Shown: positions 10,401 through 14,991, counted from the first letter of the stretch. The stretch: 32,000 nucleotides of DNA from Candidatus Saccharimonadota bacterium (GCA_030429505.1 JAUIFI010000001.1:810001-842000); one strand, 5' to 3'. Notes: generated from the sequence alone by a model not told the origin. A program made the numbers and translations.

Positions 10401-13400
10401 CTACGGACACCCTACCAAAATCTATGATCAGACCAAACAGCTCTACACCTGTCATCAATTTTCCAACGATGAAGATACCTGGCGAATTGGTTTTTTGACA
10501 CAAAGTAAAATCACCACCAACGGCAGTTGTGATTTTTCATCATGGGACAGTGGACAGGACTGGAGTTGGAGCAAAAAAACATTTGATACCAGTGGGGCAT
10601 CACCACGCATGAATCTGCTGAGCGAGTCTGAATGGGATGATGAAAATAACGACTGGTTGACGACCAGTTTCGCGTATCAGGAAGGCAGCAATACCTACGG
10701 GAATGTATCGAGTATTACTTCGCCTCTGGGAACAACGACCATTGTCTACGGGAGCGACCATATTTTCCCGCACAGCGAAACTACTCCGGCTGATGCGCAA
10801 GGCACGAGTCTCACTACCACCTATACCTACGACAACCGTTTCGGAAATAAAACGTCGGAAACTGACTCCAATGGTCATACCACGATAAGCTGCTTCGACG
10901 ATTTTGGACGACAAACCATGACCCAAGGTCCTTTGCCGGATAATCCTGTCACCTCCACCAAAGACACCAATTGTCTCACCGGAAAAAAAGATGTGATCAT
11001 GCTTTCGACCACTGACTATGTCAATGACAGCACTGGTACGTACATCGAAACTCGTCAAAGAATATCATGGGATGATAGCAATACTGCCAACTGGCGCTGG
11101 AGTCGTTCGTATCTGGACAGTTTATCCCGTCAGTACAAAACCGTATCGATGGGACCTAGCGCCACTCAAAATGTCATCACCGAAAAAGAATACGATAACC
11201 AGGGTTTTGTCGAACAGGGATCAACGCCATATTTTTGTAACGGTTTTGATTTCTCTGACTGTTCTAGTGCCGAACGCTATTACACCTCCATCGATTACGA
11301 TCTCTACAAACGCGAACTCAAAAGCACTTATCCGGACGGCACTATCACAACCAATGCCTATACCGGTAGCGCTTCCGGTCAGATGACAACTATTACAAAA
11401 GCGGTGGGTACTAGTGACGAACGAAAAGAAATTTTGCACTACGATACTTTGGGAAATCTTGCCTTACAGGAATTTTTTGATGATCAGGGCAATGCTCTTC
11501 AGACCAGTCATACCTATGACAAACTGCAACGCCAGAAAACCATCACCGATCCCAGTACTCCTGCCGCTCCAGGGGGCGTAACCGAAAGTTTTACCTACAA
11601 CTCTCTGGGACTCAAAACCCAGTTGCAGGAAACGGCGGTCATCGGAGGAAAAAGTCAGGCTACCGGTGTCGGTACAATCTCCTATGAGCATAACGATCAA
11701 GGGCTTCAAAGCACCCAGACCAATGGTAAGGGAGAGAAAACAAGTCTGATGTATGATGCCCTCGGACGAACGACCACGAAAACATTTAAAAATAGTAGCG
11801 GCACGACGACCCGAACCGTTCAGTACACGTACGATACCAGCACCTACACTGACGCCAATCCCAAAGGACGACTCACCAAAGTCGTCGTCTATCCGGGCAC
11901 CACCAGCACAACCCCCGAATCACAATACGACTTTCTCTACGACAATTACGGAAACACCAAGCAAGTCGTTCTCACCATGGACGGACAGACCTACACGTGG
12001 AAAACAGCATACCATCCGGACGGACAGGAAAGCCAGCTCACCTATCCCGACCAATCCGTACTGGAACGAACCTACTATCCATACGGCAACCTAGAATCTC
12101 TCAACCTTGCCAATTTTGACAGTGGTTCTCTCAGCCCATCGCTCAATTACGCAACCTACGAAAACTACAACGCACAGAATGCTGTCGGACAGATTACCTA
12201 TCCCTACGATCCGAGCGCAAATTGTCAGGGCGATGATTGCGCCCTTATGGCGACCTATACCTACACTCCTCAGACCGGTTTTCTGGCAACCCAAAAGATT
12301 CAAGACAAAGGACGCGGCACAACCATAGCTGACAAGAGTTATAGCTGGAATCAGCACAGTGATATTCTGGGTATCACGGACAACAATACTTTATCAAGAA
12401 ACGGAAAAAGCGCTTTTGATTATACACAAAACCTCACCTACGACTCACTAGGACGACTCACCAAAGCCGTCGGTATCTATGGTACGAAAGAATACGGATA
12501 TGACGCATCAGGGAATCTGGTTTGCAAGGGAGCTACCACCGCCTATTCCCCTTCCGGAAGCTTGCTCTGTACCGGAGGTACGACATACACCTACCAGGGA
12601 CACCAGCTTATGACAGGATCGGGAGCTAATACCGTGGGAATTACCTATGATGACAGTGGCAGCATGTATGTCAAAACACTGAATGGAAAAAAATCTGCCT
12701 ACACCTACCAAAACGATATGCTTCAGCAGACTCAGATCAGTTCAGGTGTTACGGCCAGTGTGTCAGAAACGTACCTCTATGACTATGTCGGCAAACGTCT
12801 CAAAAAAGACAATCAAACGACAAATGCTACAACATGGTACGTCATGCCGAACTATGAAATAACAACAGACAGTAATGGCACTACCCATACCAAATACATT
12901 CCCGGACCATCAGGAACAGTTGCAACCATTACGACTGACAATTCAACGGTAAACCTCTTACCACCTCCAGCCACGAGCAGTATCGCTGGTCTATGGCAGA
13001 AAACCAAAGACAATCTGACCGACCAATGGCAGGAACACATACAATCACTGCTGGCGCAAAGTTTATTCATCGCTCTTTACACGTTGCTCTTGGGAGGAGC
13101 TTTGTGGCTCATGTTCTTGATTATCAGAGGAGCTAACACACAAAGTTTGTTGGGAAAAATGAGACGAGGGCTTATTGAAACCCTGCACCGCAGACAATGG
13201 CTGTCTCATGGAACTGCCCGAAAGCTGGCTCGTCAGCATACCACTGACATTGCTCGACGATCACCGTGGATGAAGTGGGTGTCGCTTGTCTTAATCATGG
13301 CAACGCTGACCGGATGTTCCAATCCAGCTGGCTTACAAAGCAGTATTCTCCAATTATCCAAGACAGAAACGACCTCAGGAACCTACCCTGCAAGCGCCCA

Positions 13401-14991: not shown

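Follow-up and report, generated by a model that had tools for sequence, protein, structure and literature searches.

A conserved insert with predicted topogenic signals between the shell and plug of an SpvB/FG-GAP Rhs toxin

Known cocoons and the Saccharimonadota protein

Known Tc toxins and Rhs cocoons are cytoplasmic and are delivered via TcA injectors (on which Tc toxins depend) or a type VI secretion system (T6SS). The Tc BC cocoon, e.g., TcdB2-TccC3 of Photorhabdus or YenB/YenC2 of Yersinia entomophaga, contains an SpvB domain, a propeller, a YD shell, a core aspartyl protease, and a variable C-terminal toxin. T6SS Rhs effectors (e.g., RhsA, Tse5, Tse15, and TseI) have a YD cocoon, a core autoprotease, and a C-terminal nuclease or other toxin. 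Here we analyse a protein that resembles both groups. It is encoded in a 32,000-nucleotide (nt) stretch of a Candidatus Saccharimonadota genome (GCA_030429505.1 JAUIFI010000001.1:810001-842000), hereafter the window, in which all coordinates are counted from the first letter unless otherwise given. The protein (P0001) is 2509 amino acids (aa) long, carries an N-terminal Sec signal, and has a 154-aa insert with two hydrophobic segments between its shell and its plug.

P0001 has the features of an RHS/YD toxin (a YD shell and the core R...D...DPxG motif, with a variable toxin after DPxG) and those of a Tc protein (an SpvB/TcB N-terminal domain and an FG-GAP beta-propeller closing the cocoon). 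The top Foldseek match of its modelled structure was the TcdB2-TccC3 cocoon (4o9x etc., E 2e-42, TMq 0.68), followed by T6SS Rhs effectors, a teneurin-like protein (9ifo), and teneurins. Tc toxins lack Sec export and membrane segments, whereas P0001 has both an N-terminal signal and the insert. It also differs from T6SS Rhs effectors in that its N-terminus consists of a Sec signal and SpvB with no PAAR, and the genome has no VgrG.

The Rhs/Tc cocoon fold itself is known; what appears to be new is the proposed cassette between shell and plug, a stop-transfer helix followed by an internal signal peptide. Literature searches found no description of such a cassette, and the background they returned was limited to teneurin-like proteins (TLPs) and Rhs N-terminal transmembrane (TM) regions. 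Some T6SS Rhs effectors carry predicted TM regions thought to enter target membranes (PMC10684867). In prePAAR-type Rhs proteins the TM helices are PAAR-linked and N-terminal to the shell, whereas those of P0001 lie between shell and plug. Bacterial TLPs are exported YD shells that end in a toxic C-terminal domain and bear Sec signals, which in Myxococcota are of the SPII (signal peptidase II) lipoprotein type (PMC13018210). They have an FN-plug, an NHL propeller, and an N-terminal lipoprotein signal, unlike P0001 with its SpvB and FG-GAP domains and internal signal, and an internal TM hairpin is not described for TLPs in PMC13018210.

Our preferred reading, which we hold with middling confidence, sees the insert as a conserved cassette of topogenic elements that would turn a Sec-exported Tc/Rhs-type cocoon into a cytoplasmic-membrane protein. 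It would do this with a stop-transfer anchor followed by an internal signal at which the C-terminal part is cut and lipidated. The cell membrane would then probably carry the toxin shell on its outer face, and cleavage may divide the toxin into two chains, an unusual arrangement in the Rhs/Tc family. A cocoon that is exported by Sec and contains, besides a conserved membrane-insertion module, an internal signal peptide (with lipidation in some members) would be a third delivery architecture. If this is true, it would be the first member of the Rhs/Tc group for which cleavage by the producer's signal peptidase is expected, giving a two-chain route that parallels the TcB/TcC split.

The insert and its conservation

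A sequence-only reading of this region had proposed a membrane hairpin with an internal lipoprotein-type signal just before the core plug. The last shell strand, both hydrophobic segments, the loop, the lipobox, and the core start were all found where it had put them:

12892-12939, plus strand: last shell strand, KYIPGPSGTVATITTD, aa 1811-1826
12940-13401, plus strand: entire shell-to-core insert, aa 1827-1980 (154 aa), from homologue alignments and profile
13051-13125, plus strand: TM1, predicted stop-transfer helix, LAQSLFIALYTLLLGGALWLMFLII, aa 1864-1888, from Kyte-Doolittle hydrophobicity, an AlphaFold helix, and homologue hydrophobicity
13126-13269, plus strand: basic loop, predicted cytoplasmic, aa 1889-1936 (48 aa), from its charge (+11/-2), homologue charge, and model helices
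13147-13191, plus strand: amphipathic helix within the loop, LLGKMRRGLIETLHR, aa 1896-1910, from the AlphaFold model
13270-13317, plus strand: TM2, putative internal signal sequence, MKWVSLVLIMATLTGC, aa 1937-1952, from sequence and the lipobox column in homologues
13306-13317, plus strand: lipobox LTGC, with Cys1952 at 13315-13317
13402-13725, plus strand: RHS-associated core / aspartyl-protease plug, aa 1981-2088, beginning FFQHDH, with a TIGR03696 match (NCBIfam) at aa 2006-2089

Most Rhs relatives matched by aa 1700-2100 join shell to core with a linker of 10-20 aa and lack the insert. For example, P0005, P0011, P0013, and P0016 each aligned as two high-scoring segment pairs with a query gap of ~130-150 aa at the insert. 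The closest subfamily, in contrast, all have a similar insert: first a hydrophobic helix, next a basic loop whose length ranges from 2 to about 70 aa, and then a signal-like segment that stops a few residues upstream of the core start YPxAG-TLYFH. The sequence-only reading had known of no TM hairpin with a lipobox at this position, and the insert is missing from most Rhs relatives, but it is conserved across a subfamily and is not this gene's own oddity.

A profile of the insert region matched 435 cluster representatives at E <= 0.001, and the insert defines a widespread, apparently undescribed subfamily of SpvB/FG-GAP Rhs proteins with hundreds of representatives. Named carriers include Cyanobacteria (Hormoscilla and Cyanobacteria bacterium SBLK), Leptospira santarosai, and L. 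ellisii; in cluster look-ups, which gave few names, most relatives were metagenomic singletons. No standalone or other-context homologue of the insert alone was found among proteins of 87-279 aa. When the insert profile was compared with longer proteins, only two Leptospira Rhs fragments were matched, a search in which long proteins crowd the word index.

An alignment of 166 insert-bearing homologues shows which of these features are kept. TM1 is hydrophobic in 93%, the TM2 core is hydrophobic in 98%, the loop has a positive net charge in 96% (median +4.5/-0), and the TM2 n-region contains R/K/H in 67%. A lipobox follows TM2 in 42 of the 166 (~25%), which is ~28 times the background motif rate of the same proteins (an expectation of 0.009 per scanned window), and its Cys occupies the same alignment column as Cys1952. 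In homologues with no lipobox, TM2 ends in a small-residue c-region.

Of the full-length homologues with the insert, 79 of 97 have an N-terminal signal, as do 34 of 42 relatives without it. The whole family is therefore exported, with the insert adding a membrane module, and in the insert homologues the shell would therefore be exported first. P0001 itself begins with MKKYPLTTLLCAGLLAVMPVLTSLSHLTGFLNSAYA, a Sec-type signal with a hydrophobic stretch at aa 4-28, as had been claimed.

We used an AlphaFold model of aa 890-2089, built with 33 homologues, to place the insert relative to the cocoon. Its mean predicted local distance difference test score (pLDDT) was 82 and its predicted template-modelling score (pTM) was 0.78; shell and core were confident, with shell strands stopping at aa 1826 and the core confident over aa 1970-2089. 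The insert was modelled as low-confidence helices (pLDDT 32-73) at aa 1856-1889 (TM1, pLDDT 43-59), 1896-1910, and 1937-1947 (TM2), so it does not belong to the beta-shell. A PDB profile search left the insert unaligned, as expected for columns that are gapped in most rows.

These helices could also belong to a soluble exported container, with the hydrophobic segments packed inside or on the cocoon as buried helices and no membrane role. AlphaFold cannot model membranes, and hydrophobic stretches of toxin, such as the Gly-zipper that follows DPSG, are enclosed in Rhs cocoons, both of which suit this explanation. However, the modelled insert is of low confidence and is not packed into the shell, and a positive-inside bias in 96% of homologues together with position-specific lipoboxes are topogenic signatures which a soluble container would not be expected to keep. 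We consider it improbable.

Topology, cleavage, and assembly

Topology was judged from Kyte-Doolittle averages and charge counts. The best 19-residue average of TM1 is 2.35. TM2 has a short hydrophobic core (11-15 aa), averaging 2.35 over 11 aa and 1.43 over 19 aa, and it looks like a signal-peptide h-region and not a full TM helix. The flanking charges are +1/-3 before TM1, +4/0 after it, +11/-2 in the loop (11 R/K vs 2 D/E), and +1/0 after TM2, so the out-in-out orientation put forward earlier is supported by the positive-inside rule.

TM2 also fits the SPII pattern [LVI][ASTVI][GAS]C after an h-region with a positive n-region (RRSPWMKW-VSLVLIMATL-TGC). In its n-, h-, and c-regions and its lipobox it is like the signal of a Sec/SPII lipoprotein, and the genome encodes Lgt (two copies), LspA, signal peptidase I (SPI), and SecY. 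In standard bacterial lipoproteins, however, the signal is N-terminal, whereas TM2 is internal (aa 1937-1952) and lies behind a stop-transfer helix, where processing is predicted.

The simplest alternative for the same two segments is an uncut out-in-out hairpin: TM1 and TM2 would both stay in the membrane with the loop in the cytoplasm, the cocoon would be a single chain tethered to the producer at its plug end, and the lipobox would be there by chance or be non-functional. The positive-inside charges, the presence of two hydrophobic segments, and the low-confidence helices outside the shell all fit it, and in the homologue P0004 the helices are just 2 residues apart, which suits a tight hairpin. 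Against it, TM2 is short and signal-peptide-like, and the lipobox sits at the exact end of TM2, in one column, in ~25% of homologues and at 28 times background, which suggests that it is used for cleavage. With lipoboxes in about a quarter of homologues and small-residue c-regions elsewhere, a stable uncut hairpin is therefore less likely, and we regard it as possible but rather doubtful. For the membrane-tethered hairpin of the sequence-only reading, the two segments and the orientation are supported, and a stable uncut form is less likely than that reading had supposed. The switch between SPII and SPI c-regions among homologues fits a cleavable signal peptide and not a signal anchor.

Under our preferred reading of a cleaved cassette, the N-terminal signal peptide would take the part containing SpvB, propeller, and YD shell across the membrane. 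TM1 (aa 1864-1888) would then act as a stop-transfer anchor in N-out/C-in orientation, leaving the basic loop (aa 1889-1936) in the cytoplasm, and TM2 (aa 1937-1951) would act as an internal signal in N-in/C-out orientation, re-exporting both the RHS core plug and the toxin (Gly-zipper, PT-HINT, and HNH). Given an SPII lipobox, what would most likely follow is the addition of diacylglyceryl to Cys1952 by Lgt and then cleavage by LspA.

The predicted outcome is two membrane-held chains: a shell with TM1 (and a TM2 remnant), and an N-lipidated core-plus-toxin chain. At the membrane the two would combine to form a cocoon, its plug end turned toward that membrane, and, as other Rhs/Tc cocoons do, it would use the core aspartyl protease inside it to release the HNH toxin. 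Since the genome has no Omp85/BamA and an outer membrane would be absent, the cocoon would be on the cell surface. If the internal signal is cut, P0001 would resemble Tc toxins in having a two-chain cocoon (cf. TcB and TcC). Tc B and C, however, are separate polypeptides split mid-shell, whereas P0001 is one open reading frame (ORF) with its predicted cut between shell and core. Membrane insertion, cleavage, lipidation, and two-chain assembly are all inferred from sequence.

A core-plus-toxin lipoprotein could also arise if translation began internally at M1937, as the sequence-only reading had offered, and read alone from that residue the sequence does make a good SPII signal. However, homologues have no Met there, their n-regions continue from the R/H-rich loop, no Shine-Dalgarno-like site precedes nt 13270, and the frame is open from the upstream start. 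We therefore dropped the internal start as highly improbable.

Several points weigh against a cleaved cassette. Cleavage at internal signals is rare in bacteria, and the folded shell could shield the site from signal peptidase. The core plug would still have to close the shell it is cut from, though in Tc toxins TcB and TcC are separate chains. Hydrophobicity scales are a crude stand-in for dedicated topology and signal-peptide predictors. Finally, the gap between the helices varies from 3 to 70 residues across homologues and is just 2 residues in P0004, so the helices alone are conserved and not the loop sequence.

The hairpin might instead act in a target membrane, which it would enter after the cocoon is released or presented, so that the plug end would have a gate through which the HNH toxin is translocated. 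This would be analogous to the N-terminal TM regions of the T6SS Rhs proteins Rhs1, TseI, and RhsA, which have been hypothesised to enter target inner membranes (PMC10684867), and the insert does adjoin the plug that must open for toxin release. However, with an N-terminal Sec signal, SecYEG would place TM1 in the producer membrane during translocation, and the genome has no T6SS (no VgrG), with no delivery apparatus identified. To us this is a long shot.

Taken jointly, a broader three-part proposal is unlikely to hold, though we rate it a little above that target-membrane gate. First, the cassette would be a general means by which signal peptidase divides the proteins of a Tc/Rhs-like subfamily into two chains, both anchored in the membrane, forming a TcB/TcC-like surface cocoon with neither TcA nor T6SS. 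Second, in this episymbiont of the Candidate Phyla Radiation (CPR), which has no outer membrane, a cocoon with its plug toward the membrane would be a contact-dependent weapon. Third, the HNH nuclease may be released into touching host or competitor cells, with the TM hairpin as gate.

Protein layout, host genome, and neighbouring genes

The remaining features of the protein are as follows:

7462-14991, plus strand: whole coding sequence, a single ORF for an SpvB/FG-GAP Rhs (Tc BC-like) polymorphic toxin of 2509 aa
7462-7566, plus strand: N-terminal Sec signal peptide, aa 1-35, with n-region MKK, h-region aa 4-28 (hydrophobic), and AYA c-region
7624-8184, plus strand: SpvB / TcB-like N-terminal domain, aa 55-241 (Pfam PF03534)
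8809-9012, plus strand: FG-GAP/VCBS repeat, best Pfam stretch, aa 450-517 (PF13517/PF01839)
10129-12939, plus strand: YD-repeat shell, aa ~890-1826, from alignments and model strands up to residue 937 (aa 1826)
13726-13809, plus strand: hydrophobic Gly-zipper following DPSG, aa 2089-2116, where the cleaved toxin region begins, from sequence
14197-14556, plus strand: PT-HINT pretoxin domain, aa 2246-2365 (Pfam PF07591)
14800-14928, plus strand: HNH nuclease toxin domain, aa 2447-2489 (Pfam PF01844)

DxNGDG repeats extend beyond the best FG-GAP/VCBS stretch. R2044, D2057, and the DPSG residue D2085 do not vary among 34 aligned relatives, so the core autoprotease is probably intact. The Gly-zipper directly follows DPSG, as it does in other polymorphic toxins. 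The interval from the Rhs stop to the following gene (14991-15077) has no small ORF that might encode an immunity protein, leaving the HNH toxin with no obvious adjacent immunity gene. Within the toxin region, an antisense ORF of 251 aa (13762-14517, minus strand) has no Pfam match and is probably an artefact driven by guanine-plus-cytosine (G+C) content.

The host genome is a single 1.02-Mb contig, 94.7% complete, from the Patescibacteria (CPR), and its FtsH is 69-74% identical to those of Gracilibacteria, Peribacteria, and Peregrinibacteria. Genetic code 25 (Gracilibacteria) was considered and rejected: long conserved genes have no in-frame TGA and stop at TAA/TAG, i.e., the standard code. 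Searches of the genome found neither Omp85/BamA nor VgrG (PF05954). A TcA search (PF03538) of the genome gave no match, but control genomes gave none either.

The insert module occurs in only this genome among 401 Patescibacteria genomes, and the other RHS-core genes of the same genome do not have it. For these reasons, the Rhs gene with its insert is a horizontal acquisition, and the insert is a feature of the subfamily, not a change peculiar to this gene. The G+C content of the gene is ~47-52%, vs ~40% in its surroundings. Two independent metagenome data sets contain 26.9-kb contigs identical to the window over 12400-14400, with zero differences, so the insert is not a misassembly. The organism is present in a biofloc sample, and no RNA data set was among the public runs listed as containing it, which has no bearing on expression in either direction. 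The module is present in hundreds of representatives (Cyanobacteria, Leptospira, and others) and has been transferred into a CPR genome, and it therefore bears on the use of polymorphic toxins by reduced, T6SS-free episymbionts.

Other RHS-core genes of this genome (loci L001, L003, and L005, at ~262-268 kb of its contig) are of a different type, with Ig-like/GG repeats and no hydrophobic insert. Upstream of the Rhs gene, a standalone HNH nuclease of 247 aa (6501-7244, minus strand), with a TGA stop, might represent either an orphan toxin or an ORF of homing-endonuclease type. Downstream lies an AAA_13 ATPase gene (15077-17326, plus strand), in a region (15001-17000) whose G+C content is ~30%, vs ~40% for the genome, and which is possibly a recent insertion. 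An FtsH ORF (27536-29674, plus strand) has a TTG start at 27536; its exact sequence is missing from the protein collection and its start is probably misassigned. The window also encodes a VirD4/TraG-like coupling protein of the type IV secretion system (T4SS-DNA_transf and TrwB_AAD_bind domains; 22982-25471, plus strand), here in a CPR genome. A Gmad2 Ig-like (spore germination) domain protein (4244-4816, minus strand) and a VWA-domain protein (18520-19872, minus strand) are both of surface type and unusual in CPR.

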